Source: Antedon mediterranea (taxonomy: Eukaryota > Animalia > Echinodermata). From it: 64,000 nt of DNA. The stretch covers positions 13,006,795 to 13,070,794 of the forward strand of contig NC_092670.1 of assembly GCF_964355755.1 (NCBI RefSeq), written 5' to 3'. Both the position numbers and the translations under genes were made by a program. A model generated the notes under the pieces. It saw only the letters and a program-made list of their open reading frames with translations, was not told the DNA's origin and did no database searches. Below, piece by piece: positions 2,052 through 52,400 of the stretch; positions within the stretch are counted from its first letter, which is position 1; the number at the start of each line of letters is the position of its first letter.

Positions 2052-5000
2052 TCATTTTTTGGCTACATAAGTCGTATATGATGATTCATTGTTTTCTGTA
2101 TTTAAGTTTAAGTCGCTCCATTTACCATTTTGATACAGCGATTCAGCTTGATACAGATCTCTAAAATCGCCTTGTTGTTCTTCTTCGCCTTCTTGCTCTT
2201 CTTCGTTATTTGGTATACCAATGTCCAAATTAAGCTGCCCTGGTCCACAGCTCACAAATCCTGCATCCGCGACACCTTGTCGAAACACACCACCAGTTGC
2301 GCTCAGAGGCTGGATGTCTGACGTTGTTGGGAGCGACCGTCTTGCGTTGTTAAAACCTAAACATAAAACACATTGAAAATTATGTATAAATATTACCATG
2401 ATATGAACAGTGTAATTATGATAATAAAATTGATCACTTTATCTTAAAAGTAAGTAAATAACAACTTAGGCGTCCTGGCTAATGTATATCCTACAGTATT
2501 TTAAGCAATTAATTATAATATTTTGTAGTGGAGCTGTAGCTTGGTTAACGTGCTTGCCGATCTCAAGGTTCCATCCTAACCTACCTGTTTTTGCTGTGAT
2601 TTCGTTCACTTTGTCTGCTGCATCGACCATTCCACAACTTCGAAGATGAGGTTCGAGCTTTCTAAAATCGTTGTCATTCATATTGAGATATCTGGTAACG
2701 GCAAGCTCAACACAAATATTGTCTTTTTCTGCCTTGTCAAAGTCTTTGTAAAGGAACTCTTTAAATGCTGGTGTTATGCTCTTCTCGATGGCTGCGCAGA
2801 TTGTTTTCATGTTGTCTTTTATTACGTTGGTTTGGGGTTTTTTAAAATTAGTTTGTCTGGTTGTATTGCTTAGATTTAGTTTGGTCGTATGTGATTTTCC
2901 CTTAATAATACAATCTATAATGTGTATATCTGTCGTTTCAGAGACCGGAATGCCCAATTTAACTGATGATAAATTGTCATCGAAAACACACGCAAGATAG
3001 TTATGTAACGGCACCTGTAAAAACAATACTGATGCAATTAAACTTGTAAAATTATTGAGCAAAATAAGGCTCAGTAACGGTTTTTTTCATTCCTTATTGC
3101 TTTTTTGAGAGAAAACCGACCCCCTCTTCCACCCTCTCCCACCCCCACATTTTGAAGAAACGTACAACAGCTGAATGTGCATAGGCCTAATGTAAAATTT
3201 AGAAAATTGTATTAATATGTTCTCTTAATAAGGGTTGACCGTACTGTTAACAAATATAACTTACCGTGCGGTCATCGATAATGATATTAACTTCTGAATC
3301 CTTATTGCAATAGCATTGCTTCTCAGAATTCAATGATTTTCCTGGGTCTTCTGTCTAATTATTAAATGTTAAATATTCATATTAATTTATTCTTTAGTAC
3401 AATTAGTAAAAAAAAATCTTCTTGTTTTAGCCTACAGTGTATTGATGGATCATTTTACAATTATTCTACTCCAGTTACTGCAGTAACTACATTTTGTGTA
3501 ACTTGATTATGCAATTTTTGAGAATGTTTTTTTTATGTAATCGATTATTGCAGTGACTACCTCATAAACCTCTAAAATTAATAAAACTAAAATTTTACAT
3601 TTATTGCAGTAAGAAAATGTAGTTATATTCCATTTTGTTTAATGTTATATTCATAATATCTTTAGTTTATTTAAAGAGAATTCCGAAGGCTGGGTCAACT
3701 TTTGAATCTGTTTTAAGTTAATTTCAAGCTCAAATATAAAAGTAATTTTACTTACATTGACTTTTCTGACTTCCATGTGAACCTCATGTCTTCCGTGAAC
3801 ATATATTTGACATGCGTTTATCTCCAAAAGCGTCATCCGCTCGAGTTCTGAACAATTATCGTTGGCTTGGTCCAATTCTGTTTTAAACTTGGTAAAGTGA
3901 TTTACAATTATACAAGACTTATTATTCTTTATGTATGCCGTACCATCAGACTTGCACATTTTGGTCCAGTCGCCATTTTCCTGCTTACAAGATACAATAG
4001 ATCTTGGTTTCTGTAGCACATTTTCAGGTACGTTACCGTACAGCTCGACACGAAGGGTCACGTACATGTCAAATGTAAGACCTTCTGGACCACACATTAC
4101 TTCTGGACATAAGGGAATCTTTCCATCGGTTTTCATATATCCCAAGTTGTAGATGAAAACATACGTCTGCTTTGGCAACGCGCCTTCTGGGATTGTCAAC
4201 GAAATCATGCCCAACGTTAGAGTCGCACCTTCCTTATCAACAGTCGCAACTAGCATTCGTCTATCTTTCGATAGTATGTATTTGTCACGTGGCTTCTGTT
4301 TCAAATCTCGTACTAAGCCAGAGTACATAATTTCAAACTTATTACGTTTCTGTATGTGTTGAACCTCTCCGGCATCGACCTGTAGAAAATAAGCATACTG
4401 TATTTGTATTTTGCTGGCAGTAGGCCTACAGTAATTAAAAATTACCTATTACACGGACTTCTTATAGTCTGTATGCCTAAATCTGTGTCTACACTATCAA
4501 AAATATGATGTGCCCATATATGGACATGGTGATGTCATATCGCTATCACATTTGGGCATATCAGTACCACGTCACACTTTTTTTGTCACACAAAGTTTGA
4601 TAGTGTAGACAGAGCTTAATATTGATTAATTGTTCACACGGCTGTGTTTACACACACTAGATAGAGTTGAGTTAAACTGGTCCGAATCATATCCGAGTTA
4701 CATCCGACGCGAATTGCCCTTCTGGTCAGAGTAACTCCGATATACACTGTTTTAATTTATTGTTTGATTTAGTCTAACCGTTATCAGTTTAGTGTAAGAG
4801 AGGGCATATCACAACATTCAATTTAAGTCATTGAATTCTACGTGTAATCAAGGCAATATAGCAACAGGGATGCTGAGCTCCAGAGACCAACATGTTTATC
4901 TACATACCACACCCAGACACGGCACGCCGCGGAGAATATGTACATAGGCCTAATGTTGGTATTTGTCGTAGCAAGATAGAAAATCAAAGGACTGTTCCTA

Positions 5001-15938: not shown

Positions 15939-18900
15939 TCACTTCTTAATAGCGGGCTTAATAGTCATATATGTAGGTTCTTTGTTTTCTACATTTATGT
16001 TCTCTTTCCTTATTACATTTTGATACGGAGGTTCAAACTTATGTTGACCTTCAAACTGATGTTGATCTTTAAACTGATTTTGACCTTCAGCCTGATGTTG
16101 ACCATCAGCCTGATGTTGATCTTCAACCTGGTGTTGACCTTCAACCTGATGTTGACCTTCAACCTGATGTTGACATTCAACCTGATGTTGACCTTCAACC
16201 TGATGTTGACCTTCAACTTGATGTTGATCTTCAATCTGATGTTGATCTTCAATCTGATGTTGATCTTCAATCTGATGTTGACCTTCAACCTGATGTTGAC
16301 CTTTAACCTGATGTTGACCTTCAACCTGATGTTCAAACTGATGTTGACCTTCAAACTGATGTTGACCTTCAAACTGATGTTGACCTTCAAACTGATGTTG
16401 ACCTTCAGACTGATGTTGATGTTCAGCCTGATGTTGCTGTTCAGCATTATGTTGACCTTCTGCATTATGTTGACCTTCAACCTGATGTTGTTCTTCAACC
16501 TGATGTTGATGTTCAATCTGATGTTGATCTTGTTCCTCTTCGTCTTCACTTGCCGTACCACCAATCTCAAAAGGAAGAGCATCTAAGCGACAGCTGTTAT
16601 CCCACATATTTACAACTCCTCTTGGTTGATAGGGACCGCCGTTTGTCATCAGTGACTGACAATCGGGGGGTAGTGGAAGTGAAAGTCGTGTATTGTCAAA
16701 TTCTGAAAAAATAAACATTTACAACAATTATAATTATAATACAATACACGGTATACCACGAATATAGTGTAACCTCTAGTATTAAAATGGAACCTTCACT
16801 CTTCCCTATGGGCACCAAAGTGTAACTCGATAGAGGTGTCGTCTGAACAGGGGTTATCTTACTATTCAATAAAATAGTTTTTCTTACCATATTTTGCTGT
16901 GATTTCGTTAACTTTGTCTGCTGCATTGGCCATTCCACACGTTCGAAAATGAGGTACTAGCTTTCTAAAATCATTGTCATTCATATTGAGATATCTAGTA
17001 ACAGCAAGCTCAATGTCAGTATTGTTCTTTTCTTCCTGATCAAAGTCTTGGTAGAGAAACTCTAAAAATTCTTGTGTCGGTGGGCTCGATTGGATAGCAT
17101 CGCAGATTGTGTTCATCTTGTCTTTGTTTACATTAGTTTGGGGTTTTTTTAAATGCTTTTCTCTCGTTGTGTTGCTTAGATGTATTGTTGTTGTGTATGT
17201 TCTTTCCGTAACAGTACAATCTATAAGGTGTATATCGGATGTTTCGGAAACTGGAATGCCCCATCTAACAGATGATACATTGTCATCGAAAACACCCACA
17301 TGATATTTATATAACGGCACCTGTAAATATAACACACTTTACCTTTAAAAAATGGTACCGTATGCATTTTATTATTTATATTTAGAAAATTAAAGGCTCA
17401 GCAAATGTTTGTTACTTCATACTGCTTATTTTGATAGAAAAAACACACACACAATTTGTGAAGAAACAGAATTCCTGAATTTGCCTACCAGTATCCTTCT
17501 CAACTTTCAACATGTACATGCTAAATACCCTATGTCTGTTTCTGTTATCACTGCCAAATGATTGTCTTAAACATTCATAGTATAATCTATACTATTAATT
17601 TTATGATTATTTAACATTATTAATTAATTGTTTTTAAATAACTTAATAGTGTATAAAAACATTTGCTTAGTCTGGTCTGCTCGTGCTTACAGGTGCTCGG
17701 TACACTTTGAAGCTAGTTTGTAATATTACCTTACGATCATCGATAATGATATGAATGTTAGAATCTTTGTTGCAATAGCATTGCTTCCCAGAATCCAATG
17801 CGTTTCCTGGGTCTTCTTTCTATAAATATTAAATGGTATTGATATGATTTTTACAAATTTATTTTTACTTACTATAAAGCAAGAAGAACAATTAGCACAA
17901 ACGAAAAGATGCATTGTCCTCAAAGCATGACATTAATTAAGATTAATAAAATTACACTTTGAATATTTTGCAGTCTTTATAAAGTTCCGTAGACAAGCCT
18001 GTCAGATGTGTTGTCAAAGTAAATATCTGACAATAAGCAAGTAAAATAGGTATACAATTATAATTATATCAAAATGGCTTGTATATCAGTGTGCTTAAAA
18101 ACACTTTAAAAACAATAAACATTTTAAAATTCATAATAACTTTAGCTTAAGTGAATTCCTCATTGTATGTGTGCTTCGTTATGATTGAAGTTTGACAATA
18201 CATATAATAATGGAATTGACAACTTTTACGCACATATTTTTAAATGATCATTAAAGTATTGGAATATAACAGTTATTTTCTTACATAGATTTTTCTGAAT
18301 TCTACGAGAACCTCTTGTCGCCCGTGAACATATCCTCTACATGCGTTTATCTCCAAAAGCGTCATCCACTCGAGTTCTGTACAAGTATCGTTCGCTTGGA
18401 CCATTTCTGTTTTGAACTTGCTGAAGTGCTTCACTATTATACACGACTTATTATTCTTTATGTATGCCGTACCATCAGACTTGCACATTTTGGTCCAGTC
18501 GCCATTTTCCTGCTTACAAGATATAATAGATCTTGGTTTTTGTAGTAACTTATTTGGTACATTACCGTACAGCTCGACACGAAGTGTCACGTACATATCG
18601 AATGTGAGACCTGGTGGACCACACATTACTTCTGGGCATAAGGGAATCTTTCCATCGGTTTTCATATATCCCAAGTTGTAGATGAAAACATACGCCTGCT
18701 TTGGCAACGCGCCTTCTGGAATTGTCAATGAAATGTTGCCCAGCGTTAGTGTCGCACCTTCATGCCCAACAATCGCGACTAGCATTCGTTTATCTTCAGA
18801 TACTATGTATTTTTCCCATGGCTTCTCCTGTTTTAAAGTTCGTATTGCATCAGTGTACATACTTCTAATTTTTGGTTCTTTTATGGTGTTTTCTTCAATC

Positions 18901-20115
18901 TGTCCTGGTTCTTCCTGATAAAATATAATACAATTTCATTCGTTATTGTTGAACCAGGGAAGAGTGGAATTTCTTCTCCCTGGTTGTACACTATCAACAT
19001 TTTTTAATCGATTAGGATAGACGTTTAGTTTTTAGTCGCGTGGAAGCGACTCTATTGTTCACTATGTCGGTCGGTCTGTCGGTCTGTCGGTCTGTCGGTC
19101 TGTCGGTCCGGTATCACTATGCGTTTTATCGCTTTCTGACCTTATCTTGATATCAGTTTAATCTAGCTAGGTCAATTTTTCACAGTATATTCCTTATGGC
19201 CAGGAATCGATGTGGTTATGTTTTCACGGTGCGCAATAAAAAAATTACGCGTTCTACGCACGATTTAACGAGATCACGTTTGTAATCATATCTTCACAAC
19301 CATGAATCACAATTAAATAAAATTTGGTACTCATAAATTTCAGGGCATAAATCATCATATGGCAATACAATTACGTGCGTAGCGCATGTAACACATACGT
19401 ACGCGCGCTTAAAATTTTCAAAATTTATTTTCGATGAAGTAAGAGTACGTTTAAGGCAATTTTAAGCGTTTACAAAATTGCCATGAGTGCCCATATTTTT
19501 GCGCGCGCACGCGTTAAATGTTGTTGTGCACTCTTTTTGCCCGATTTCTGTTTTCTTGACCTACTTTTCAACTCGAAATTACGTTATACGAGCACGTCAA
19601 AAGTGACAGGCTACGCACGTGTAAATTAAAAAAATATAAATGTTTTTAAACATTTCAACATTTTTAAACATGTTCAGTAATTTCGGTCAGTATAGTTCAC
19701 TATGTCGGTCGGTCGGTCTGTCTGTCTGTCGGTCTGTCGGTCTGTCTGTCGATCCGGTATCACTATGCATTGTAGCACGCGACTTAATGGCTGTTGGCCT
19801 TGTTAGTTATATGGATAATTCTGAATAAAGTTATACATTTTTACATAGTTTTTATAGTTTAGTTTGATTTGATACGTTAAATGTTGGAATGTTTTTGATG
19901 TATATTACCTTGGTTTCAGGTGGCATGAAGTATGCGTAATCATTTTCCTCGCAATTTGACTGATCTTCTTTGTCTTTCTGATTGGTGCTACAATATTCTT
20001 TTTTCAATGCACTTTTGCGATTTTCTTCAGACGAATTCGTCATGTTATTGGTCATGTTTTCATTTTCTTGTTGATGATTGTCACCCTTCGATTTGCGATC
20101 GTATTCATGATTCAT
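15939..20115 (-). CDS. Paralog B: ZU5-UPA-like-death domain protein with (QHQVEG)n repeat in C-tail, about 707 aa
   Basis: Exons 20115-19909, 18914-18285, 17819-17730, 17320-16888, 16702-15939; same intron positions and phases as A. ZU5 ends in VKHFSKF. Confidence 0.85.
16038..16532 (-). repeat. Coding 18-bp minisatellite, about 27 units, encoding (QHQVEG)-like hexapeptides
   Basis: Unit TGATGTTGACCTTCAACC and variants inside the last exon of paralog B. Confidence 0.95.
19028..19805 (+). mobile_element. Non-autonomous Helentron-associated (HINE/DINE-1-like) element, long form, in intron of paralog B
   Basis: T-run, subterminal IR AGTCGCGTG...CACGCGACT, (GTCG/GTCT)n microsatellite, 3' hairpin end GGCCTTGTT. 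Near-identical inverted copy at 42161-42897. Confidence 0.75.
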
Positions 20116-20637
20116 TGATGCATTTAAACAGTTAGAATTCCCGATATTAAATATGACATCTTTCCCGTCGTACTGCACTACTTCTTGCAAAGAATCTGAA
20201 CCTTGTCAGAAATAGTGTAAGGAGCAAAACATAAATTGTTTTCGGAATATGCGTCACGAAAATATTATTATTATCATGAAATAATTTTTAATAATTTTTA
20301 CCTATATTGACGTTAAAAATGTACAGTACTGAATGTATCCTTCTTTAGAGAAAGCTTGCCAACATTTTTTGTTCTGTGGGACTATTGCCCTGTCATGAAT
20401 AATGTCATAGCAACATACAGCAAATGTAAAGACCAATTTACATAGACGGGCGGTAACGGTAAGCGTTCTTATGAACATTTAAACAGAACGAGGAACAGAT
20501 TCGATTGCTCATCATAGGAACAGATTCGATTTTGTGAAAATACCGCGCGGTAATTGTAGATTCTGGCCAATCAACGACATGATTGATATGACGTCACCTA
20601 TCAACAACTTGTTAGCGCGATTCGAGTCGAAGATGAC

Positions 20638-30130: not shown

Positions 30131-33077
<2,947 letters not shown>

Positions 33078-34007
33078 CTGTATAAATGACACAATAGTCA
33101 ATATTATTTGGTTACAATACTTTAGTAATAAACTTCTCTATATATTGTAATATTTAAAATAGACATTAGGCCTAATTATAAACTCCAATTTGTTTATGTT
33201 ATTGTCTATGCTTGTGCAATATCAAAACCATGACCTGGTTAGCAAAGCAAGCATACAATGCGGATTGATCGTGTGAATTTAGGTGATTTTCTAGAAATTG
33301 ATACTAAGCTAAACCACTGTTGTGTGTGATAGGTAATTCACTCAGCTTTGCCTCGTGTGAATTAGGGTGGTGCGTTCTGTATTAACATTCACTGTATACA
33401 CAAGCAAATGAAATCAAATATTTTGAATATATATAAAAGCCGCTTGCATAATAAAAAAAAATGAATTTAAATAGTAAACACGTGTCATTAAAAAAAATAC
33501 AGCCTCAAATCGATTTTTAAAATTTTTAAATAGGACTCCTCGTCGTTGTAAAATCTTTAAGCTAATGTGGAGAAAGACATTTTTTACAATAAAGCAAATC
33601 AAAGAAATCATACATATACAACTTTGCATACAAAGGAATACAACTTGTGCGTGTCATACATACAGTTTAAAATCGTATTTCGTATTTCGTTTTTTTTTTA
33701 TGTTTGCGTTAATTTGTCGGCTCTTCTAAATGTATTATCAAAACCTATTTTAAAGATAACAATTAAAGGTTGCATATTTGCTTGGCAAAATGCATCTTCG
33801 TTTAGGAAGGACAATTTTTAGTAATTGATGATTAAGATAATATTCTTTACAGTAGGAAGGGCAGGTCACGTCAGGACAATACAAATAATGTGTAAAATTA
33901 GTAGGTCTACTATGATGTGTCAGATCGAGGAGAAATAAATTAATTTCGAGAAAACGATCCTATTTGGAGGGAACGAAATAATAGCTGATGTGGCCGAAAT
34001 AGGCCTA

Positions 34008-37000
34008 CTAAGCCTGATGAAGCTCTAAAAAGTTACCTTGTTCTTCTTCCTTCTTTCGAATGTAAAAAGGAAGATCTTGTAAGTCACAGTTATCATCCCC
34101 CAATTGAATATTTGGAGTCAATGGAGATCTGCGTGACATGTCAAAATCTAAACATAAGAAATGAAAAAAAAAATAGAATCATTATATTAAATAATGTACA
34201 AGCTCCTTATGTTAAAAAATATAGTCATGAGTTGGATGCACAAAACATAACATGATGAAAATAGTATTATAATAATGAATATTAGCATATTATACATTAT
34301 ACCTATTATAGTCGCTTTTATGCAATACAGCATATTCGATTAAATAAGGGGCCATAATTATTTTAAACAACACTAAACTCTAAACATAACAGAATTATAA
34401 TCAAATAATATTTTAAAGTTATTGTATTAGTTTTAATTTAATACAGCGGAATGACACGCAGTACCTGCGATTTCGTTCACTTTGTCTGCTGCATGGGCCA
34501 TTCCACATGTTCGAAGATGAGGTTCTAGCTTTCTAACATCATTGTCATTCATATTGAGATATCTAGTAACAGCAAGCTCAATGCTAGTATTGTTCTTTTC
34601 TTCCTGATCAAAGTCTTGGTAGAGAAACTCTTCGAATTCTTGGGTCAGGTTCTTCTCGATGGTAGCGCAGATTATTTTCATGGAGTCTTTGTTTACGTTA
34701 GTTTGAGTTTTTTTTAAATGATTGTCTCTGCTCGTCATGCTTAGATTTATTTTGGACATGTATGCGCTTCCCTTGACAGTATAGTTTATATGGTATACGT
34801 CAGAGGTTTCCAAAACTGAGATCCCCCAACTAACGGATGAGAAATTTCTATCAAAAACGGCATATGTATATAACGAAACCTCCTGAAACAAATAACTGTA
34901 GTGTTACTTGACCTTCATTATAAATATTCATTTTAAAGCAAAGATATAAATGGAATCATTAAAGGATAATGTTAACAGTCAAGTATTACGGTATGTTAAA
35001 TCATGAACGAATTTTACCTATCTCTAAATCAACGTAAAATGTTTAATCGCGGAAATTGAATTTATTTAAAAGGTATTTTAAATTTAAACACATTCACACA
35101 AATTAATGATAAAGCTGTATTTACAAATTTGGACATGAATGGTATGAAACATAATAAATGAGTTTGATATATTATGTAAAAATCAACCAGTCGCTGTATT
35201 CCACGTCTAATACTGTATACGTATGTGATCAAACATTATCGTAATAAGCCTACACTACTCTATTGAGAGTTGAAATTTCGCATACTTTTACGAACTTGAG
35301 TTACATCGTCTCCTGCATACGCTTGAACTCAGTCACTCAGTCTCTGCTATCATATAAATGCAACTGTACCTGCTTTGAATTTTAACTTACTATGGGATTT
35401 TCAATACCGATATCAATTGCTGTATCCTTATCTCTATTCTTCTTTTATTTCTTTTTATAAAATAATATTACACATTTTAGTAACGCTCATATTTGTTACC
35501 AGTACCAATTTTCCTCCTTAATGGTACGTTTTCTTATACATACCTCGTCGTAACCTTCATAAATGATATCAATTGCTGTATCCTTATTGCAATAGCAGTG
35601 CTTCTCTGAATTCAAAGAGTTGATTGGATCTTCATTCTATATTAATAGTTAGATATTAAAATTGTTAGTCTTTGTCTTTACAATGTCCACGAGATACATT
35701 GACATTACTGTAGTTTTAATACAAACATAAAAAAAAAATTAGAATTACGATGTTTAGCCTAAACCTCTCAAAGTAAAACTATTAAAAATAATAGTGGAGT
35801 TGATATTCAAACAAAGGCTAAACTACTTTATATAACACCTAAATAAATTCCTGTCATTTGATTGGACGATTGTGGGTCACATGGCGTGCAATAGTACGCA
35901 CTATTAAACGATCGTTTAATGTTATTGTTATGACTGGTTTAGCAATGGAAATACATTTTCGGAGAGAGATATACAATATAATATGTACTCATTTAGATCA
36001 AAAAGGCATTTAAATTAGCTTTAGATCATTTTTAGGACTTTGATTAATTAATGGCAACATCTCTACAAGGCGTGGAATCGTAGAAAAGAAACATAATTAG
36101 CCTAGATGAGTGTCTGTCGAAGTTTTGCCTTTCAGCCTAGCTAGTACTAGGCCTGTTAGTAATAGGCTATGCCTAGCCTAGGCGTTTTAGCCTTGCTAGG
36201 CCTAGGATTATTTGGTCGTTTGTTGACATAATTAACACTAAAGTAGGTGCTTGTGATAAAATCTATATAAATATACATTTAATATATTATTATTAAAAAC
36301 TAAATGTTAATGTTTTAATCAATATGAATCAAGTGTAGGCCTTGGCTAGGCCTACCTTTTATTTCATTCAAATGACCGGAATCTATTTAGATGTTATGTA
36401 AAACAAAATAATGAATGTTTTAAATTCGTGTAACGGTACAAATAATGGCATTTGGTGAATGATGAAAGGTTAAATATTAACTCGGCTTTGCCTCGTTGAT
36501 ATATAACCTTTCATCATTCACTTCATGCCATTATTTGTACCATTACACTCATAAACATTCATTATTTGTATAATATTGCACTTTGATACTAATGTCGATT
36601 ACATAAACTTTTCTGAATTCAACGTAAATATCTTCTCTTCCGTAGAATGATTCTCTACATGCGTTTATTTCCAAAAGCATCATTCGCTCGAGTTCTGAAC
36701 AATCATTTCCTTGGTCCAATTCTGTTCTGAAATGTGTGTCTTGTTTCACTGCTATACAAATTAGAGTTTAGAAATGTGTTATAAGTGTACATGAGTAGAC
36801 AATTTTAAGAGAAAGATTGAATTCCAATAAGAGCCCAGCATATTTCTTTGCTCCATCTGTAGTTTTTCACCCCTATTATAATAGTGACAACATTTGTTAC
36901 TTTAAGTTTACCTTTTGCATTTGTTCCTTTGAGCATGCGTAATGCGTCGTTGTAATTAAGTTGATCAATGTGTGTGATCCATTCCTTTTGAAATATTTTC

Positions 37001-39338
37001 TGCTGATTTTCGTCTAAAACTAATATTTCTCCTAGGTCTTTAAGAAGCTGTCCACTTTGATGCATTTCCCATATGTGTATTAATGCATATTTGTCAATTA
37101 TAGACAGTGTGAGAACTATAGATCCTTTTCCTATGTGCAATAATTTCGAACCATTTACTTGGACGTAGTAGTAAACACGATGCTGTAGTTTATTATTAAA
37201 TTCCTTCGCAGCATCAGCATTTAGACTGCCAACATATTGGTCAAGTTGATCTAAGATGTCATCATCTATGTCGTTTTCGTTCTTTCTTTTAAGAGTTACG
37301 GTTAGTTGAGCTTCTATAATAATTGAATGATTAGAAAATATTTTCTGTACGGTATATTATCGATTATATTCGTGCAATATTTAGTAACTAATGAGATTTA
37401 TCTGTATACAATTCCTTACGTTAAACCAGTAATTAGATATACGTGTGTGACGTGCAGTTTCGATTTCGTGGTAATGAAAGGATGTTAGTGGTTGCTAGGA
37501 GCAGCTTTTTAAAACTCACAATAAAAGGTGAAGGTGAGTCCCGTATTCATTCTGAACGTAGGGGTGAGCTGTTAGGAGCTCATTGTACTAAGCCTCGGCA
37601 TTATGTGGTAGGGTGGCCAGTTCCTTTCCACACCGCCTTTTTCTCCCTAGTATTTTAAACCAGGTACTCATTTACAGCTGAGTGGACTGGGAGTTGTCTG
37701 GAATTGAACCCGGGTCTATCTTTATGACAGTCAAGTGTCCTAACCACTCGGCTATCCAACTCCAACAATACATATATTTAAATATAAATCAGTTAAAACA
37801 GTTTTCGAAGATAATGTGATTTAATAAATGGAGGAGATGTAGATTATTAAAAATATAAATGTTTACGTTTGTATCAACTAAATTTAAGTAAAAAAATAAT
37901 TGCAGTATTTTCAACTTGGTTAATGTTAAGAGTGTAAGACATCTTGGCATTTTATTTAAAGGGCTCCAAGTAATTGTCTGAAACACGAGAAACATATCAC
38001 CTTTGAATTATACATCAATTTGTTTATTGACCGTACCGTATCAATAATGTCTTACCCTTTAAATTAACTGTATCAACTTTAAACAAATTATCGATAATGT
38101 TATGATATAACACGTACAGAAAATGTTGCTTAAAACTTTAACAACCTTACATACCTTGCGTAAGAATTTCCACAGCTTTATGTAGTCCAATATTTGTCAA
38201 GGTCTTAATAAATGTTTCCATTTTCCCACTTTCTTTACAAATAATATGTGTGTGTTGTAGATCAAAAATAAGATCCCACCCATCTTTATAGTTCTTTGGT
38301 GGCCTATTGTACGAAGTATCAATTTTTTTTACATCTTCCTCTATTAATTCATTTCCAAACTTTGTAATTTGTTGTTGATGATGGCTGAATTTCGTAATAA
38401 TCTTGTTTTTAACTTCAGAAAGTGAGGGTATGTGTACGAAAGTTCGAAGTTTGTCTACAATACCAAACTGCTTGGTGGCCTTAATGGTATCAAACAGAAG
38501 GGTGAGATCTTTTGAACTTAGTTCTCCAGAATTAATTAATTGATTGAGCAAGTCCATCGTTGTAGTGGCCCTAGATAAATCAGCTTCTTCAATATAACCA
38601 TGATACAAAACTTTCAGTTTACTGATAAGTGATCGTTCATCATACCAAGTTGAAAAACATACTAAAGCCTGATTAAAAGAGTTTTCTAAAAAAGGAAGAA
38701 GCCCATAATATATAAAAAAAAAACTTTAACAATACAAACATTGGATCTTATAATTTGTAAAATGTACTAATGGCAAAGGTCCAAGAAGCAGTATTTTATT
38801 TCAAATCAGGTTAAGACATGACTCAATAATTCATTTCTGGCATAAATTAGGATGTTATAGAGGGCGCTATACACAGGTATGGAACAGGTTTCGGTTTGGC
38901 CAAGTGATAGTCTTCAGTTTATGGAACTGATGCTCATCAACATCATCCTTGTTTTTTTAAAATATAGATATAGTTGAGTTGAGAGAGATTAGGGCTATGA
39001 TCAGTTGTATTTAGAACATATGTCAGTAATGTAATTCTTTATCATAGAAAATAATAAATCTGCCTTACCCTGATTTGTAAATCTGTCTTTTATTTTTAAT
39101 ATTATAAATTAATCAAAACATGTGTATTAATACCAAAACTATGAGCAAATTAAGGTATCAAACACAATTTATAATGGCAAATTGTTTTGCTGGTCCGTGA
39201 ATAATCAGGGATGATTAAATTATTCGTAATCATCACCGCCATGAGTGAAAATTAGTAATATGTGAAATCCTGTAGGTCTACAACAATTTTGTACAGTCGA
39301 TGTACGTAAAATAGAGGTGACTTACCTGATTCAGCCAT
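34008..39338 (-). CDS. Paralog D: tandem DED-like + TRADD-N-like + ZU5 stub/UPA-like + death domain protein (about 581 aa alone; about 1067 aa if spliced to C)
   Basis: Exons 39338-39326 (MAES), 38685-38155 (two DED-like repeats, e.g. ATTTMDLLNQLINSGELSSKDLTLLFDTIK), 37313-36912 (HIGKGSIVLTLSIIDKYALIHIWEMHQSGQLLKDLGEIL, TRADD-N-like), 36751-36603, 35636-35544, 34882-34465, 34147-34008 (or internal donor at 34037). All junctions GT-AG and in frame. Confidence 0.78.
35826..36550. mobile_element. Non-autonomous element with a Crypton-like palindromic end, in intron of paralog D
   Basis: Long terminal hairpin centred on AACTCGGCTTTGCCTCGTT (36440-36545); similar motif at ~33335-33363. Absent from the equivalent intron of the other paralogs. 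Confidence 0.4.
37445..37765 (-). mobile_element. tRNA-derived SINE in intron of paralog D
   Basis: Minus strand A box TAGCCGAGTGGTTAGG, B box GGTTCAATTCC, then GTCCACTCAGCTGTAAATGAGTACC body. Confidence 0.6.
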
Positions 39339-42160: not shown

Positions 42161-42897
42161 AACAAGGCCATATAGATGGCTGCAGTCGCATGCTCATTAG
42201 TGTTTAACGAACCGACAGACCAACCTACCAACTGACCGAAATTACTGAACATGTTTAAAAATGTTGAAATGTTTAAAAACATCTATATTTTTTTAATTTA
42301 CACGTGCGTAGCCTGTCACTTTTGACGTGCTCGTATAACGTAATTTCGAGTTGAAAAGTAAGTCAAGAAAACAGAAATCGGGCAAAAAGATTGCGCAATA
42401 ACATTTAACGCGCAGTGCGTGCGCAAAAATCTGCGCACTCATGGCAATTTTGTAAAAGCTTAAATTGCCTGAAACGTACTCTTATTTCATCGAAAATAAA
42501 TTTTGAAAATTTTAAGCGCGCGTACGCATACGTTGCATGCGCTACGCACGTAATTGTATTGCCATATGATGATTTATGCCCTGAAATTTATGAGTACCAA
42601 ATTTTATTTAATTGTGATTCATGGTTGTGAAGATATGATTACAAACGTGATTTCGGTAAATCGTGCGTAGACCGCCTAATTTTTTATTGCGCACCGTGAA
42701 AACATAACCACATCGATTCCTGACCATAAGGAATATACTGTGAAAAATTTACTTAGCTAGATTAAACTGATATCAAGATAAGGTCAGAAAGCGATAAAAC
42801 GCATAGTGATACCGGACCGACAGACCAACCGACAGACCGACCGACCGACAGACCGACCGACATAGTGAACTATAGAGTCGCGTCCACGCGACTAAAA
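42161..42897 (-). mobile_element. HINE/DINE-1-like element, long form
   Basis: Reverse complement of 19028-19700 joined to the 3' end of the short family members (GCAGCCATCTATATGGCCTTGTT). Confidence 0.75.
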
Positions 42898-43702
42898 AAA
42901 ACCACACACAACAATGCATAATTAAGTTTAAGCTAAGTTTGGCTCTAACTAATGATTTCTGTTCAAATCATTTCTGTTTTAAAACTCAATTTGATATTGT
43001 TTTTCTTGAATTGTAAAACTTTCGGCGTGTATTCAAGAGAAACAAAACATAAGTAGAATGTCTTTACAATTAGTTACAACTTGGTTAAGGGTTTGTTTAT
43101 GGTCTATGATATTACGAGATATACATTATTGTGAATTTGTTGTATGTACATTAACCAAATATTCTTAAAATACTGGATAAACAGGCACGAATGTGCGATA
43201 CACGGGGTACAGCAAAAGAAGCTGTAATGACGTTATAAGACGGGATGTGACGTCACATATACATCAATAACCTCGGTACCAAATACGGTTATATGGTACC
43301 ATCTTCGAGACGTCATATGGCTGCATCCGGTTTGAAATTTAAAAAAATCCGGCTCTATAGCTTTGAGAACATGTCCCTGTAGTATATTCATGCCAAATCC
43401 CAGCTCAATACTACAACGAATAAGGGATCGGAGGAGTAGTACTTTATAAATCTCACTTTCTACTCAATAGTGTCGGATGGAGGAGAAGATGAGAGAGTCC
43501 TAGACTCGGGTACCCCGAGTAATAAAAACAAATACAGTAGTACCGAGAAACGGGTGATGTTGACAATGCTTAAAACAGTGTATACCATTTTGTGAACCCT
43601 TCGAATGGAAATATTACCCTTGGAACTCTTCCAAAACAAATTCCCACATTCTTTCAAAATGTGTGTAGGCCTACGTTTTGTTAAGCCTATAGTTTGCTAT
43701 TA

Positions 43703-46251
43703 TCACTTTGGTGAAAACCCCATATATGATGGATTTTTGTTTTGTACATTTGAGTTCTCTTTCATTTTAACATTTTGATAAGTAGGTTCAGCTCGATCTG
43801 GATCGTGTAGTTCTTCTTCACCGTCACTTGACGCCCCAACCTCAAAAGGAATTAACTCTTGTGGTCCACAGCTGACATCCCCCACATCCGCAACTCCTTG
43901 TGAAAATATACCGCCGGTTGCACTCAGAGGTTGAATATCTGGTGTCAGAGGAAGCGACCGTCGTGACTTGTCATAGCCTAAATAAAAGACAATTAGAATC
44001 ATTCAACAATGCGCAAAACAGTTATTCTTATAGTAGAAGCAGAATATTAAAAAAAAACATTTTTTTTTACCCAAAATGTCTGTAATTTTGTCAACTTGAT
44101 CTGCTGCATCGGCCATTCTACACCTTCGGAGATGGGGTAAAAGCTCTTTAAAATCGTTGTCGTTCATATTAAGATATCTGATGATAGCCAGCTCTAGAGA
44201 AATATAGTTCTTTTCTTCTTGGTCGAAACATTGATACAGGAACTCTTCAAATTCTGGTGTCAGGCCCTTTTTGATGACAGGACAGATTATGTCCATGTTT
44301 TCCTTGCTTAAGTTAGTTTGTGGTTTTTTAAAATGGTTTTCCCTGTTCTCAGTAAGATTTATTTTGGTTGTGTGTACATTTCCGGTAACTTCTACATGAT
44401 GTATATCGGATGCGTTTAAAGCATCCGATATAGGGATGCTGAATGTAACTGAAGATAATTTGCTATCAAAAACACTTGCAAGGTAGTTATGTTCTTCTTT
44501 ATATAATGACACCTGTAAAACATCATAGAAAAAAAAAGATTTATTTATTATTTACAATTCTACAAAATGCACTTATTCACGGATCATAGTAAATGTTGTG
44601 CAAGCAGTACAAATTGCTTTATCAAGTATGGACATTAATGTACAATGATACAACATTATTAATACAATGATCTCTATTCTATATTATTGAATTTTTTTCG
44701 GGATTTTTTTTATAAAATAATATTACACATTTCAGTAACGCTCATCTTATTTGGCCTAATTTACTCAGTACCAATTTTCCTCCTCAATGGTACATTTACG
44801 TTTTCTTATACATACCTCGTGACCTTCAAAAATGATATTAATTTTTGAATCCTCACTGCAATAGCAGTGCTTCTCTGAATTCAATGAGTTGATTGGATCT
44901 TCATTCTATAGTTAGAGATATCAATCACACTGGTTATATAATAATAGTTCAATTAAAAAAAGTAGTACTGTACACAGTTCCAATCAATTTAGATCATCTT
45001 GTCAGGTCAAGCCTGTCTAGTGTCGGAAATGAATATTCAGAAGAAATAGTTGTAGTAGAATATTTTGTTTATAAATGGCATTGAAGAATAGAAATTTAAA
45101 TGCAAATGCTACTTACATCAACTTTCCTAAATTTAACTTGAATCTCTTCTTTTCCATGGACAGATGATGATTTACATGCGCTTATCTCAAAAAGTCTCAT
45201 CCGTTCAAGTTCTGAACCATCTTCGTTTGCTTGGTCTACTGCTGCATTGAACTTTGTGAAGTGGTTCACTATTATACAAATCTTGTTATTCTTAATGTAT
45301 GCCATGCAATCAAGCTTGTACATCTTAGTCCAGTCGCCATCTCCTTGTTTACAGGATACAAGGGATCTTGGTTTTTGTAGACATTTTTCAGGTATGTTAC
45401 CGAACAGCTCGATACGAAGTGTCACGTACATGTCGAATGTAAGACCTGGTGGACCGCACATTACTTCTGGACATAGCGGAATCTTTCCATCGGTTTTCAT
45501 ATATCCTAAGTTATATATGAAAATATACGTCTGATTTGGCAACGCGCCTTCTGGAATTGTCAATAAGATCATGCCTAATGTAAGCGTTGCACCTTCCTTG
45601 TCAACAGTCGCAACTAACATTCGTTTATCTTCAGATAGTATGTATTTCAAACCTGGATTATCCTTTAAATATCTCTTTAAACCAGTGTACATACTCTTAA
45701 TTTCAGGTTCCTTTATGGTGTTGTCTGGAACGTGTCCGGATTCTTCCTGCTGCGAATAAAAAAACACAAAAATCAATGTTTACTATTCATTATTGTACAT
45801 AATTGAATATTGTCGATCAGATCAACTTTTTGTTTGTAGGCCTATTCACAAATTTAAAAATAACAGTATTAATAATAATAGTTTATTGTTATATAGTGCT
45901 GAAATATATTATATATAATGTTAAATAATGTTGCATAAGGTTTATATTAATTTGGTTTATTTGTTTTGGTTTAGTGCAATCTTTTGGTAAATGATACATT
46001 TTTTACAATCTGAAAAAAAACCTTTAAAATTGTAAACTTGTATTTCCATGTACCTTAATGGTTCCTGGTTGTTCGTATGTGTGAACATCGTCCTCACCAT
46101 TCGACTCTTCTTCTCTGTCTTTCTGAATGGTGCAATATGCACTTAGGCGATTTTCTTCAGACGAATTCGTCGTCGTGACATTGGTCATTTTTTTCTTTTG
46201 TTGTTGATGATCATTGTCATATTTTGGTTGGTGATCGTTGTCATGATCCAT
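43703..46251 (-). CDS. Paralog E: ZU5-UPA-like-death domain protein, about 544 aa
   Basis: Exons 46251-46054, 45746-45117, 44905-44816, 44512-44071, 43977-43703; GT-AG and phase-consistent. VNHFTKF. An alternative upstream ATG lies at 46284. Confidence 0.85.
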
Positions 46252-47753
46252 TGGTACATTTTTGGAATTCCCGATATTCAGCATGACATTTTCCCTGTTG
46301 TAGAAAACTACCTCTTCTCCTTGTCTAAGAGCAATTAGCAAAACAACAAGTTAAAATTTGGGAATTAGCGTCATATAATCAAACGAATTTGTGGCTTAAT
46401 TTGACGTAAAGAATGTAATGAATGCCCAAACTCCTATTGCCTAATACTACTAAAACTACAAATTGTATTATTATGTACTAAATAAACAAAAATACAATAC
46501 AAAACACCTATAGCATATTACTTACTAATCTTGACCTTTCTTTCTTTCTTTATAATTTTGGCCTTCGGCCCATATTACATAATAACATGAATCAATATTT
46601 AGGCGGTCGTTTCTTAAACGAAAGCATTTTCTAAAACATTAAAATACAATTATTTCTCTTGATTTGGACATTCCTGAAGTTAAAACTTTTTTCAATGTAT
46701 ATAGCAAACAATCTTAATTCTTTTTTATTTCTAAATACATAATTCAAATAGGCCATAAGATTATTTGTTTTCTGTTTAAATATAATATTTCTTCTGGAAG
46801 GCACTCAAACTCAATGTAATGGTCTGTGCCGGTTTGACTATAGGTCGCAGATCGATTCAAATCCTATATTTAATTCAGTAAGAGCTTGAATACGCATCTA
46901 TTGAAAGTTTGTTGTTAGTTAAGAAAACAGTCCGTGTGACGTGTATTTTTGTGTGACTTGAATAATATTCGTGTGACAAGAGAGTACCTACAACATATAA
47001 ATTGAATCGCTTTACGTAATACGAAGGACACTCAAGGCCACGTGACACGCGTAATACACGCAAGGACGAATTACAGATCGAGATAAAAAGTCTCGCGCGT
47101 GACACGCATATAACATTTGACATCTAACATTAAAACGAGTAGGTCTACCGTCTGTTATGGTAAATGATGAAATTCATTATCATTAACTCTCTGGTTTAGT
47201 CATTTTTAAATAAGTTGTTATACTGTACTAATGTTGGTGTTAGATTGTTTATTAGCGCCCTCTACAATTTATCTATTTAAAATGTTACAGCGCCCTCTAA
47301 ATGATTTCATAACGCCTCCAAATATATAATTTTCTAACGTCTGAAAACCATATACGAAGTTATATTGAATTATAATATGGCTGAATTAAAACAGTCAGAG
47401 CTCTGTGTCTGATGCATAAATTACTGTAGGCCTATCTACAAACAAAAACTCTACTTAATGCCGTTAGTAATTAAGTAACATTATCACGTTAAATCAGAAA
47501 TGATAGACTCTAAACAATTATATTTTAATCTCACCAACCTAACTTGGTTCACGGTGGGCACAACCTTTGAAGACGATAACGATTTTCCCCGATATTGACG
47601 TTGAAAATGTAATGTATTATAGAGAAAGATTGTCCGTAAATGTTTCCCGACTGTAGGCTACTGACTATCATAAAATAACATCTTAACTGCACAAAGTAAG
47701 GTTTTTAAATGTCACAGTGGCACTCAACTGTGAAACAATTGTACCGATAGTAT

Positions 47754-47785
47754 TGAGTCATGCTATAATAAAAAGGGGGAATTTT
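47754..47785. promoter_or_regulatory. Conserved AP-1 / AT-rich / kB-like module upstream of paralog E
   Basis: TGAGTCATGCTATAATAAAAAGGGGGAATTTT. Confidence 0.45.
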
Positions 47786-49137
47786 ATTCTATGCACCTTA
47801 CAGAAGAATGTATTAAATTGTTGCCCACGTCTATACATAATATGCAGTTTATTGTTATAGGCCTACTAAATAAATAATGTAATCGCAGTTAGCTAAACTT
47901 CTTAATAAGGTCAGTGTCCTTAATTACTCAAAAGTCAAGCAGGTCGAGGCATAGTTCCTTAATTAAATTTTCGCGAGCCGAACCTATCTATATCTCCCTT
48001 TCCATCCCTGTTTAAAAGTTTGAACATCCGGGTTATTCGTTATTTCTCATCTCGCCCTCATTTCAAAGAATTCTGTCCGACACTGGGATTCGCGTATTCA
48101 CGTGTGTGTGCTAAAGGCACCATGTGATTAGATTTCTTATTACCAAATATTCTTATGATACTGGGCAAATATATTCTCGTATGTGGAAGTACAGCCCTGG
48201 AATTCGGGTAGGACATTGTGGATGCATGGACAAGCCAATTGAATGTTTCTATGCCATTTGAAACTTAAAGTGATAAATTATGTATCCACCAGACAGTTTT
48301 AAAGTAACATTTTACAACTACTTGCTTTCACCGAAACAGCAATCAGAAAAGTTGATCGTTACTTTATAGACTAATGCAGTTTCATGAAGCAGGAAGAACA
48401 TTATCGTCAATATACAGTAGATCTGTCTAGTAAGCCTTTGATATAATAGTTTATATAAATCCTAAAATAAGGCATACACACTCCACATTGACACGTTTTG
48501 GTATTCCCCATTATTATTCCGTTTATTATAACTAATTTTTAGCCTTGGGTAAATAAACATGTATACTTTTCGTTACGTATAGTAGTGAGGAATTTCTAAA
48601 AAGCTAGAATGAAAACAATAAACAACAATAGACTGCTTTGCGGTACTGTATTGTTAAAAAGTCCGTGAACTTTCTTTTACGGAATACTAATGCCAGTTCC
48701 CTTGTTAAGCAGGGACCCAGGTACCTGTAGGTACCTTGCCCGTACATCCAGGAAGTATACGGTAGGCCTACTGTTAAATAGTAATGGTATTTGTTTTTTA
48801 GTTGACATTTTACAGTACCGGACCCAAATGTAGTTTCACTTTAAAAATACATAATAAAGAATAATTTCACTCTACAAAACATATAACTATTCTTTACTGT
48901 GCAATTTTTTAGTTCAATTAAAATTCCATGACTAAATTTTTAGATGCTTCTCTGATTAGACTTGCTCTATGTCGATGTGTGTTTGTAAAGGATTATACCT
49001 ATGAAACTTAAACCAATTTTTACGTAGAATTGTCGTCTAAAACCAGACTATTTTTTAGTCTTTATAATTGTTTATGAATTACACGCGTGCTACGTGTGTC
49101 ACACGTGGATGAATAGGGAAAATTCATTTATTTATTA

Positions 49138-49430
49138 TTTATTTACGCTGGGTGACCTCTTCAGTCAAAGACTTCTCTCGCCCATAGGGCCCAGTTATGA
49201 TTAATGGGTGCGAGTGATTTGTGTACTAGTACAACGGTGTAAACCCCTACTCATCTCGAAAGAGAGATAAAGTGAACATGATCTAGATATGTACACTGGA
49301 CCTACAATGTATAGTCCTTATCCGAGAAGACTTGTTCTACCACCAGAACCATGGAGTGAATGAGCTTCTAACCCTTGCCTATGTTTTGGCTACGTAATTA
49401 CGGTTCCACTGTCTTAACCTGATCGGTACC
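49138..49430 (-). mobile_element. SINE (Deu/Nin-like body); related plus-strand fragment at ~40745-40880
   Basis: Both share GTTCTGG.GGTAG..AGTCTTCTCGGATAAGGACTAT...GGTCCAGTGTACA...TCGA.A.GAGTAG. Confidence 0.55.
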
Positions 49431-52400
49431 TATACGATAAAGAAATAAATCAATTCTTCTTCATGCTTACTTAAATTAACAAATGGAACACAGACGATAA
49501 AGAAATAATATAAACACGGTGCATACATTATCCTTTGCTCAATAGTAACACTAAACAAACAAACTAACAAATAAATAAATAAATTAACAAACAATATTTA
49601 TGACCTATTTGCTCATACTCGGGTAAGTATTAACACAACATTGTGGTAAAGGGTTTTATTCATTACCAATTATGAAATTATGAATGAATATAAATACCTG
49701 TATAAGTACCTGGGTAGGCCTACATGCATAAATAATAATTGCGCAATAATAAAATCGATTATTCTATAAATATACCCTAAGGTAACCAGTGACATCAGAT
49801 TTCTATATTTAAAATTAAGGTATTATCCAATATACAGAAAGGAAATAACAATTTTTATTTCCTGTTAATTTTCTATTTTTGTGAATTTCAAGGTTTAAGA
49901 TTATTTTCATTTTTTAAAGAAACTACTGTGGTACAACTTAAAAAGTATATTAGTATATAACATGTTTAGAAATTAACAATTTATTTCTAAATATCCTAAA
50001 ATATTTTTCCTACATATAGCTGACATTTTTTGTGCCAAACTTGTTGTAGGTAATTGAATAAATATTTTCTTTTTTTTTAACTGAACCTCACCTGTGGTGT
50101 AGTATCGATTCAAAAATAAAGGTTCAACATATTAACAAATAAACTATTTGTATTATTTCGTTGTATTATTTAACTAAACTTAAACATTTAGAAACTATAT
50201 TAGTCATTATCATGTAGGTAATAGTGGGTGGTGCATTTACAATGATTAACAGATTGCTAGTACTCCAGCAAACTTCGAATTTTTCAAGAAAAGTTTATAG
50301 TGCTAGTGTATAGATGACAAGTTGATACACTCCGGAAAACTGCAGTAACGCTCTTTAATGTAGGCTTCAAATATGCCAACTGACAACCTTTTGCAACTGC
50401 TGAAAACTTGTTTGCAGACTAAGTTAAGTTTATGCACCTTGCCTAGTCTATACTAGCAAACATTAGTTTGTAAAAAAATCGACAGTGTAGGCTAGTCTGG
50501 CTAGTTTGAGGTTTTTGAACTAGTCAACGAATCAAGCAGTATTTGTGATGGACAAAATTACAGCGCAGAAAAACTAGTGTAAAGGTATGAGGTATATATA
50601 TTATATAAACTTGGAGTTTTAAAACAATGATTGGTAGTCTATACACCGTACTGCTACTCCGAGAAAAATAGAGGACAGTTGAGGAATCAAGTTGCTGTTA
50701 ATTTGTCATAATATTGTTTTGTAATATTACACATTATTATGGCTGTGATTAGAATTTATTAACATTAAAATACATTCCTTTTGCAAAAACGTCGCTGTTA
50801 GGCCTTTAGACCTGTTCTCGATATTATTTTTTCAATTTAATAAAAAGTTAAACCAGTGAAGTATACAAAATTACTCCACTTCTAAAGAGTTATGTAGAGC
50901 ATTTTGTGTATATGCTTTTTCTTGTGAACAAGAATGCCAACTTTTAAGAAGGATAGTGAATAAAATTACTTATGGTTATCCTTGGCAATCTTCAAAAAGT
51001 ACCAAAAAGGTTTGTTTCAAAATAATAAATAAGTTGCATTATGTAAAATTGTTCTACTTATTGTATCATTATTGATTTATAATTATCTTTCTGAAAAAAA
51101 TAGAAGCAAAATAGACCATTTCAGTTTTATCTTGAATTGACAAAGGTTTAAGAAAAACTGAGATGAAAAATACGTTATGCAAAGCTCTATTTTATTTTTG
51201 TGAACATTCAAATGTGTATTATGTACGTGAGCAATCCACCTTGGTGGAACCCAACATGTATATGGAGAAGCAAATACAAGTTATTGGATACGGATACATT
51301 TAAGTTACAAAACATAAACTAATAATTGTAATTCCTAGTATTCTAATTGCATACGTATCTTGAATTATTATTTAATTAATATAATTTTTATCAATAGTAT
51401 TTGTTGGCGTCTGTGATTGCCGTAATTGCTTTTGAGAATAATTGAAAACAATTCGACATTTTTTCTCCTATTTAAATGGAAGTTATTTACCTGTTCGAAT
51501 AATTTGTCTTCTCTTTTAGCATTTCTTCGTTGGCGTTGGCATTGATTTTACACCACAATTTACATGCTCTCCTGTGTATGGCATTGCATAATCAATATAT
51601 TACACCAGTGTAGCACAGGAACTGACTATCTGCACATCAATACCGCGTATAATATAGTGCTCGTGCTCCGCATACTACTTTTTTTGGCAATCCCCATAAT
51701 GTTTAAAAAAATAACTATTATAGTTTTAAAAGTTATATATTATCATTCGTCAGCTTACACTGTGTTTCATCTACCATTTACAATATACTTTATTTGTATT
51801 AGGACAATGTGTGGGTTGTGTCCATTATAAGTCATGCGCAGGTCCCTTTAAAAGGATTTAATAGTTTTAAATGACAATATGATGTTCCCTTTATCTATTC
51901 GTTTTATCTATTGATGATACCTTTCTCTAATACCAGTGACATTTTCCTCCAGTAGTTCCTTGTGTATTGCGAATTTTTAAAAATATACATTTAACAAAAT
52001 CGCGGAAGTTACAGGCGATTTTTTTATAATGGGTTTTTTTTGTTATCGTGAATGACTAAGAAAATAAAAGTTACTTTATCGCAAAATTTAGTTAGCCTTA
52101 TTGTTACGAATAATACCATAATGAGTGAATTTTACTTCCTTAATTCTAAATAAGAAATTGGGTAATAACCAAAAACATAAAATAAAATTAAAAATTACCA
52201 CACAGAATAACTTATTGGAAATACCAACTTTTTAAAACCAAGCTATTTAAAGATGTATTGTCCCTTTGACTAATTCCAAAAAAATAAAAAATAATAGATT
52301 TCGAAAAAAGGTGGGTCATTTTGAAGTATCATAATAGTTATTAACTATCACCAAACATTTTTCGGGAAAAAAAAAATTTAACTGAAATACAGACGTTTTT

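Follow-up and report, generated by a model that had tools for sequence, protein, structure and literature searches.

A crinoid gene joins a tandem death effector domain and a putative TRADD-N-like domain to a UPA-death module close to the predicted self-cleavage position

Proteins in which death effector domains (DED) and TRADD-N domains form constant regions in front of variable effector parts, ZU5-UPA included, have been described for marine invertebrates (Kaur et al. 2021, PMC8195603). The layouts listed there comprise Death+Death+TRADD-N+ZU5+UPA in a sea urchin (XP_011664960.1) and HEPN+TRADD-N+ZU5+ZU5+UPA+Death in a coral (XP_022803160.1), and DED+DED+TRADD-N is listed at least 34 times. 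From these domain lists the invertebrate TRADD-N was proposed to act as a switch located where the constant and the variable part meet, and retroposition was proposed for some of the fusions. Here, we describe a member of this class, termed gene D, which lies on the minus strand of a stretch of 64,000 nucleotides from the crinoid Antedon mediterranea (contig NC_092670.1, positions 13,006,795 to 13,070,794; hereafter the window) together with four paralogs, A, B, C and E, that encode ZU5-UPA-death modules. Gene D encodes a tandem DED and a likely TRADD-N-like domain followed by a UPA-death module that lacks ZU5 (module 1), and likely continues into the complete ZU5-UPA-death module of copy C (module 2).

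The DEDD2-clade expansions of the published class resemble gene D in a death-like constant region, a TRADD-N at the junction between globular domains and a variable C-terminal part; the likeness is one of layout, and gene D differs in that UPA follows TRADD-N without ZU5 and in the likely presence of a whole second module behind it. With PIDD1, PIDD-CC, NLRP1 and CARD8 it shares the ZU5-UPA-death fold and an HF-S-type motif at the equivalent position, and module 1 corresponds to the fragment released by these proteins. In contrast to them, it has no LRR or NACHT and a single ZU5, module 1 is tethered and devoid of the motif, and cleavage is putative. The ZU5-UPA-DD supramodule of UNC5B and the ankyrins is matched by the ZU5 profile (E 1.6e-12) and by the alignment of model residues 334-533 to UNC5B 688-942; however, the RefSeq proteins of gene D contain no transmembrane or ankyrin region, and UNC5B has Leu in place of the motif Phe. 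The fold and packing of the tandem DED are shared with caspase-8, cFLIP and vFLIP (Z 13-18), whereas gene D differs by an identity of only 11-16%, by the lack of a caspase domain and by belonging to a crinoid-specific DED family. Like FADD, it combines a DED and a death fold in one chain.

Gene D thus belongs to a published class, and the notion that its architecture is without precedent does not stand in view of the sea urchin and coral layouts listed in PMC8195603. What appears new in this gene, found in one species, is the join without ZU5 and the detail of the graft. None of the searched entries in the table of PMC8195603 shows 'DEDD2+UPA', the equivalent of the ZU5-less join, though the remainder of the table or the NCOA6 clade may hold one. 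Likewise, no published account of gene D was found in literature listings on crinoid DED or NLR proteins, Antedon immunity, UNC5CL, exon shuffling and sea urchin ZU5.

Seven minus-strand exons between positions 39338 and 34008 form an uninterrupted frame of 1746 nucleotides (581 residues and stop) with GT-AG borders at all six introns, and an in-frame stop is located 21 nucleotides upstream of the ATG:

39326..39338, minus strand: coding part of exon 1; ATG at 39338, phase-1 donor; the leader is covered by an RNA contig up to 39908
38155..38685, minus strand: exon 2, tandem DED, residues 5-182; phase 1-1; fold match; spliced in run X1
36912..37313, minus strand: exon 3, predicted TRADD-N-like domain, residues 182-316; phase 1-1; GS turn G245-S246 at 37125-37120; spliced in X1
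36603..36751, minus strand: exon 4, the 3' part left of the ZU5 exon of the family, and start of UPA; new acceptor
35544..35636, minus strand: exon 5, middle of UPA; from the exon chain and X1
34465..34882, minus strand: exon 6, end of UPA and six-helix death fold, residues 457-538; from X1, the model and the fold match
34037..34147, minus strand: exon 7, a shorter version of the last exon of the family; donor of phase 1 following 34037 (RefSeq) or continuation to the stop ending at 34008

Five sequencing runs cover this region, none of which is recorded as RNA; that X1, a single run of a single study, represents RNA is a guess backed here only by its GT-AG joints. One X1 contig of 1755 nucleotides joins 39908-39326, 38685-38155, 37313-36912, 36751-36603 and 35636-35543, and hence spans the start codon as well as the DED, TRADD-N-like and first two UPA exons. 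Two further X1 contigs join 35543 to 34881 (with 30 letters in the shorter arm, one below the threshold for bridging) and 34465 to 34147 (43 letters), so that five of the six introns are bridged under the threshold and the remaining one is borderline. Contigs of X2, X3 and X5 run unspliced across 33400-34567 and 34602-35853. The chimera is therefore real, spliced and expressed, although contigs reveal neither expression level nor transcript ends. The original prediction of an exon chain leading from MAES through two DEDs and a GS-motif domain into UPA-DD proved exact; the junctions 38155/37313, 36912/36751 and 36603/35636 are all present in the 1755-nucleotide contig, and X1 splices into 36751 rather than stopping at 36805. 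As a side observation, a good donor near 39890 and an acceptor near 39378 (minus strand) could bound an intron in the leader, where the X1 contig is unspliced.

The protein was modelled over residues 1-540 with an alignment of 35 rows, which resulted in a mean predicted local distance difference test score (pLDDT) of 78.3 and a predicted template modelling score of 0.51, that is, without fixed packing between the domains. In this alignment the ZU5-UPA-death row from Anneissia covers no more than the death fold and the second half of UPA, and in two rows ZU5 residues fall on DED columns; modelling of the whole protein without alignment was useless (pLDDT 33.8). The tandem DED region was modelled at a pLDDT of about 95. 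Residues 6-186 superimpose on the tandem DEDs of caspase-8 and cFLIP with Z 17.5-18.0, a root mean square deviation (rmsd) of 2.5-2.9 and 170-172 aligned residues, the best match being 8ym5_A (Z 18.0, rmsd 2.5, 170 aligned), and Foldseek returned an E-value of 7e-4. In line with these results, searches with the DED family profile placed the DEDs of FADD and cFLIP first (best E 0.0015). The Pfam DED profile matched exon 2 below its cut-off and over the first repeat only (E 1.2e-5, 25.9 bits against a gathering score of 35.9, which was reached by 14 of 67 scanned relatives). The profile comparison between DED1 and DED2 yielded a probability of only 11%, and the second DED therefore rests on structure. 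Single-sequence searches of the PDB with the DED exon, the TRADD-N-like exon and paralog E retrieved nothing at E < 0.07. The model thus provides solid grounds for a tandem DED of the caspase-8/cFLIP fold, as had been predicted from two DED-like repeats.

For exon 3, modelled within residues 1-540 and not alone, the order of elements is strand-helix-helix-(weak strand)-strand-helices-strand at a pLDDT of 56-87, and G245-S246 directly precedes the modelled strand 247-253. The TRADD-N motif uS, with S or C, is reported to sit in the turn between beta2 and beta3 (PMC8195603), and a pattern drawn from the consensus of that paper matches 11 of 12 crinoid stretches. When 7992 candidates were searched with the profile of this domain, under a word limit, five crinoid proteins only were retrieved. 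TRADD-N, the fold of which is RRM-like, is absent from the top 50 fold matches, the slots of which were taken by other domains of the model. Judged by the retained GS turn, the modelled topology, Atlas neighbours and a Pfam match below cut-off, exon 3 likely encodes a TRADD-N-like domain; the earlier assignment is moderately supported by these lines and fails at the Pfam cut-off.

The paralogs A, B, C and E encode ZU5 and the start of UPA in one exon of 620-630 nucleotides, of which gene D retains the last 149. The similarity to the paralogs begins about 10 nucleotides upstream of the acceptor of exon 4, and the AG of this acceptor replaces a base of the paralogs' Ile codon, five codons before the HF-S/T position of the family. 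In module 1 this motif is changed to Q319-D320-T321 and HF-S/T/C is thus lost, whereas H750-F751-T752 is intact in module 2; H and F are invariant in all seven aligned ZU5 rows. In the ZU5 profile alignment with UNC5B (E-value given above), the motif Phe falls on chain residue 137, which would correspond to Leu-677 with residue 541 as the first of the chain, an offset deduced from length and range. Leu-677 of UNC5B has been equated with the cleavage-site Phe-296 of CARD8, and the motif with the HF/S of PIDD (PMC3210808). ZU5 is present in module 2 and in the paralogs and absent from module 1, and in intron 3 no ZU5 remnant beyond about 10 nucleotides was found, since 101-422 of 500 shuffles scored equally. 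Given the position of the graft near HF-S/T and the loss of the motif, module 1 resembles the active fragment released by PIDD, NLRP1 and CARD8 (PMC9162469, PMC7794386). Any join placed further upstream would result in a truncated ZU5, and this may suffice to explain where the join lies.

The paralog comparison bears out that the cassette was grafted onto the UPA-death module of the cluster. The C-terminal six-helix bundle was modelled at a pLDDT of 91-96 and has no Pfam Death match; compared with either DED by profile, it reached a probability of at most 3% and is no copy of them. According to the model, the domain is a death fold that may be of the DD, PYD or CARD subtype. The UPA-death region (34465-36751) is a mosaic, with exon 5 nearest to C and E and exons 4 and 6 nearest to A and B, and the synonymous divergence (dS) of the death fold is 0.20 to B and 1.2 to C, which suggests gene conversion or unequal crossing-over.

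A query with the DED exon retrieved four matches among 779 candidates, all from Antedon mediterranea. The only cluster with 100% identity contains two RefSeq isoforms of 1066 and 1067 residues, the single-residue difference lying at the acceptor of exon 4. The 1067-residue protein corresponds letter for letter to twelve exons of the window; it leaves exon 7 after 34037, includes 33077-33031 and enters copy C at 32066-30131:

33031..33077, minus strand: exon 8, linker of 47 nucleotides, phase 1-0; RefSeq model
31437..32066, minus strand: exon 9 ('gene C'), ZU5 followed by the start of the second UPA; 32.8 bits with Pfam ZU5 (cut-off 21); HF-T, residues 750-752, at 31583-31575
31148..31240, minus strand: exon 10, middle of the second UPA; RefSeq protein identity
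30500..30941, minus strand: exon 11, end of the second UPA and second death fold; RefSeq protein identity
30131..30405, minus strand: exon 12, acidic tail containing tyrosine, then stop; RefSeq protein identity

As the RefSeq protein continues into the next ZU5-UPA-death copy, gene D likely possesses a ZU5 and extends beyond 34008, where the original prediction had placed its end. The statement that the cassette stands in place of ZU5 consequently holds for module 1, but not for the whole gene, since module 2 carries ZU5 in the RefSeq form. Copy C has no homologue of exons 1 and 2 of paralog E in front of it, its likeness to E starting at the ZU5 acceptor (dS 0.038). Of the five copies, D alone has a GT after 34037, and the 47-nucleotide exon 8 is compatible with both flanking phases. 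Alternatively, the main product could be a 581-residue protein ending at 34008, with copy C being a separate or dead gene that was fused by annotation. The nine codons past the donor have kept their in-frame match to the tail of paralog A up to the stop, and the RNA-checked stretches end short of 34037/33077. However, the database search revealed no entry of 581 residues, copy C lacks first two exons of its own, and exon 8 fits both phases. X1 has no cover at 33884-34011, adjoining the stop at 34008; by the rule of the method such a gap proves nothing and was not counted. No AATAAA or ATTAAA is present from this stop to exon 8, but none is found in the 800 nucleotides past the stop of paralog E either, and hence the missing signal does not discriminate. 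On balance we consider the long form running into copy C likely and the short product unlikely; the latter would alter the architecture and leave the adaptor logic as it is.

The cassette occurs once in the window, and its relatives are scattered through crinoid proteins. A full HMMER search yielded 153 matches at E 0.001, 150 of which were listed; the following counts refer to 150 relatives besides the two isoforms of gene D. A tandem-DED stretch was found in 141, a TRADD-N-like stretch in 22 and both in 17, the latter being accompanied by B-box, LRR, ubiquitin, Roc or nothing. DED with ZU5 occurs in two and ZU5 with UPA-death in three of these listed relatives, and TRADD-N-like with UPA-death in none. 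The clusters whose source was looked up stem from Antedon or Anneissia in 23 of 24 cases. In the 67 scanned relatives the DED family is combined with NACHT (12), Roc (5), TIR (2), caspase (1), Rel (1) and others, and twice with ZU5. In a midpoint-rooted FastTree of 172 DED pairs, from which shorter or weaker stretches and P0001 were left out, gene D clusters (support 0.993) with four Antedon proteins encoded on three other contigs and bearing B-box, Roc, a weak LRR or nothing; this grouping points to the putative donor family. Both cassette exons are of phase 1-1, which suits exon shuffling, and the cassette keeps its introns and so does not look retroposed. We propose that a DNA-level copy of these two exons from the crinoid cassette family would have landed in the ZU5 exon of a cluster member, where a cryptic AG would then have restored the reading frame.

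The same DED family is found on a crinoid caspase-8-like protein with two DED pairs (P0030, XP_033126911.1), the second of which is 44% identical to that of gene D, rendering the predicted route to a caspase plausible. In addition, the family occurs on a Rel-homology protein (P0028, XP_071955940.1) and on NLRs in which as many as five DED pairs are found (P0009), apparently forming a large crinoid DED signalling network. P0113 and P0119 of Antedon represent separate DED+ZU5 fusions with HF-C at the motif position; thus, fusion of DED with ZU5 modules took place on more than one occasion in Antedon mediterranea.

Our preferred reading is that gene D encodes a cytosolic immune or cell-death adaptor, likely a lineage-specific one, for which we see the chances as evenly balanced. 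Module 2 would cut itself at F751-T752, as PIDD and CARD8 do, and UPA-death-fold units, its own and perhaps fragments released by its neighbours, would oligomerise. The oligomers would cluster the attached tandem DEDs, which could then seed, or become part of, DED chains formed by the crinoid caspase-8-like protein or by NLRs that carry DEDs. The TRADD-N-like domain, placed where the constant part meets the variable one, would restrain the flanking domains until a signal arrives and thereby replace repression by ZU5. UPA is reported to lower the filament threshold of CARD8 and NLRP1 about 100-fold (PMC7794386), and the DD of UNC5B to be sequestered by ZU5 (PMC9162469). More specifically, gene D could act as a 'pre-cut' seed: the shuffled active UPA-death fragment, linked to a tandem DED and held by TRADD-N as a brake, would convert UPA-death oligomers, including those of the four neighbours, into caspase-8-type DED chains. 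We regard this version as speculative and rather doubtful.

Several results weigh against the adaptor reading or its parts. The match of PF20694 (TRADD-like_N) on exon 3 (E 8e-4, 19.6 bits) remains under the gathering score of 23.7, and this family matches one of 12 crinoid family stretches. The ten best family-bearing Atlas neighbours share family or clan with TRADD-like_N, but with scores of at most 0.87 they provide a lead only, and the profile found no match among PDB sequences. The first UPA is a beta-sandwich modelled at a pLDDT of 58-73, and its alignment to UNC5B is of medium quality (173 aligned, Z 5.5, rmsd 9.2), with generic Ig folds matching at a similar Z of 4-5.5. The C-terminal bundle matches DD, PYD and CARD entries alike at Z of at most 7.4 (3mop_K Z 7.4, AIM2 PYD Z 7.1). 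Chain K of 3MOP we take to be IRAK2. The junction of exons 7, 8 and 9 stems from the RefSeq model, and RefSeq can fuse tandem paralogs; binding, cleavage and translation of the protein are predicted only. Moreover, the RNA-covered leader contains nine upstream ATGs, and at least nine variant positions were found in the exons of gene D. Seven of the nine listed change a residue, which fits relaxed or diversifying selection, though contigs of paralogs may contribute; two of the listed variants share one codon on one contig and jointly encode Trp.

These variants and upstream ATGs also bear on the alternative that gene D is a young shuffling product of little function, carried on read-through RNA from E and heading for loss. 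X1 contigs are likewise found at 40036-40498, 40699-41111 and 41286-42194, between the stop of E and the leader of D, and together with the upstream ATGs they leave room for read-through from E; the gene is, in addition, restricted to one species among the 150 listed relatives. On the other hand, a frame of 1067 codons is intact across 12 exons including two apparently new in-frame splice sites, and the ratio of nonsynonymous to synonymous divergence (dN/dS) of the UPA-death part is 0.31-0.43 in pairwise comparison with the four paralogs and, measured as pN/pS, 0.33 for exon 6 on the branch of gene D itself, hence below 0.5, with part of this constraint predating the graft. Contigs, moreover, cannot reveal starts or levels. 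We deem a decaying read-through product quite improbable. As an observation of its own, X1 depth is 473 over 41286-42194 and 40-50 over 40036-41111, with AATAAA at 41140; 40036-42194 is possibly a long 3' untranslated region of E with read-through toward D.

If functional, the protein could instead act as a decoy like cFLIP-short, vFLIP and PEA-15, the tandem DED capping DED chains and the uncleavable UPA-death module poisoning the oligomers of the neighbours. This would agree with cFLIP and viral FLIPs being among the best structural matches (Z 13.4-14.9), with the lack of a catalytic domain in the 1067 residues, where no Peptidase_C14 match was found, and with the lost cleavage motif of module 1. 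It appears rather improbable, as the variable part of the published class is understood to be an effector that the TRADD-N switch sets free (PMC8195603), and as the active species of CARD8 and NLRP1 are UPA-death-fold fragments lacking ZU5 (PMC7794386). Very unlikely, finally, is the TRADD-like hub originally predicted, in which TRADD-N recruits TRAF and drives NF-kB. S246, the equivalent of the TRADD serine contacting the MATH domain of TRAF2, is kept; nevertheless, this output is unsupported, given that PMC8195603 reports no MATH expansion beside the TRADD-N expansions, restricts classic TRADD to vertebrates and argues against MATH as a universal partner of the invertebrate domain. Besides, a route to NF-kB could equally be homotypic, as Antedon P0028 combines this DED family with a Rel domain.

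The paralogs in the window besides copy C are as follows:

43703..51522, minus strand: paralog E (P0006, 580 residues), ZU5-UPA-death fold; UPA-death 96% identical to copy C
15942..20187, minus strand: paralog B (exon 2 to last exon), ZU5-UPA-death fold with HF-S; first exon likely near 27340
2055..4379, minus strand: paralog A (P0007), ZU5-UPA-death fold with HF-T; from sequence comparison

Although its frame is open from the ZU5 exon onwards, paralog B is missing from the protein search results, and its tail comprises a coding repeat of 18 nucleotides x 28 at 16032-16531 rich in Gln, His and Glu. Copies of the first exon of paralog E lie at 30032-29848 and 27431-27276 (both minus strand). 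The former starts about 100 nucleotides past the stop of C and has a phase-2 donor, for which no matching acceptor was seen; the latter is of phase 1 and fits exon 2 of paralog B. E, C and Anneissia P0008 share a conserved P-T-Y-Q/E-N-V-K near the C-terminus and a tyrosine immediately preceding the ZU5 exon; from general knowledge we take the tyrosines of these tails and linkers to be possible phosphotyrosine sites. A high-copy element of 670 nucleotides is present in two inverted copies that are 95% alike (42231-42898 and 19029-19691), a palindromic high-copy element lies in intron 4 of gene D (35830-36570), and tandem arrays are located at 55287-56587 (65 nucleotides x 20) and 23038-23785 (139 nucleotides x 5). 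ARAGORN found no tRNA gene in the window.

Taken together, this locus displays shuffling at the nucleotide level, with symmetric phase-1 exons, an acceptor at the self-cleavage position and a likely new donor, and the detail that a fresh splice acceptor lies almost exactly at the predicted self-cleavage site is new. Literature listings on invertebrate and echinoderm TRADD-N with DED (PMC8195603 and one virus survey) suggest no experimental test of the TRADD-N switch. Since intact and ZU5-less versions of the module stand side by side, both this switch and repression by ZU5 become testable with natural controls. If the seed model is true, gene D would be a one-gene bridge between PIDDosome- or inflammasome-like assembly and DED-caspase death signalling, and would allow the model of TRADD-N as a switch to be tested cleanly.

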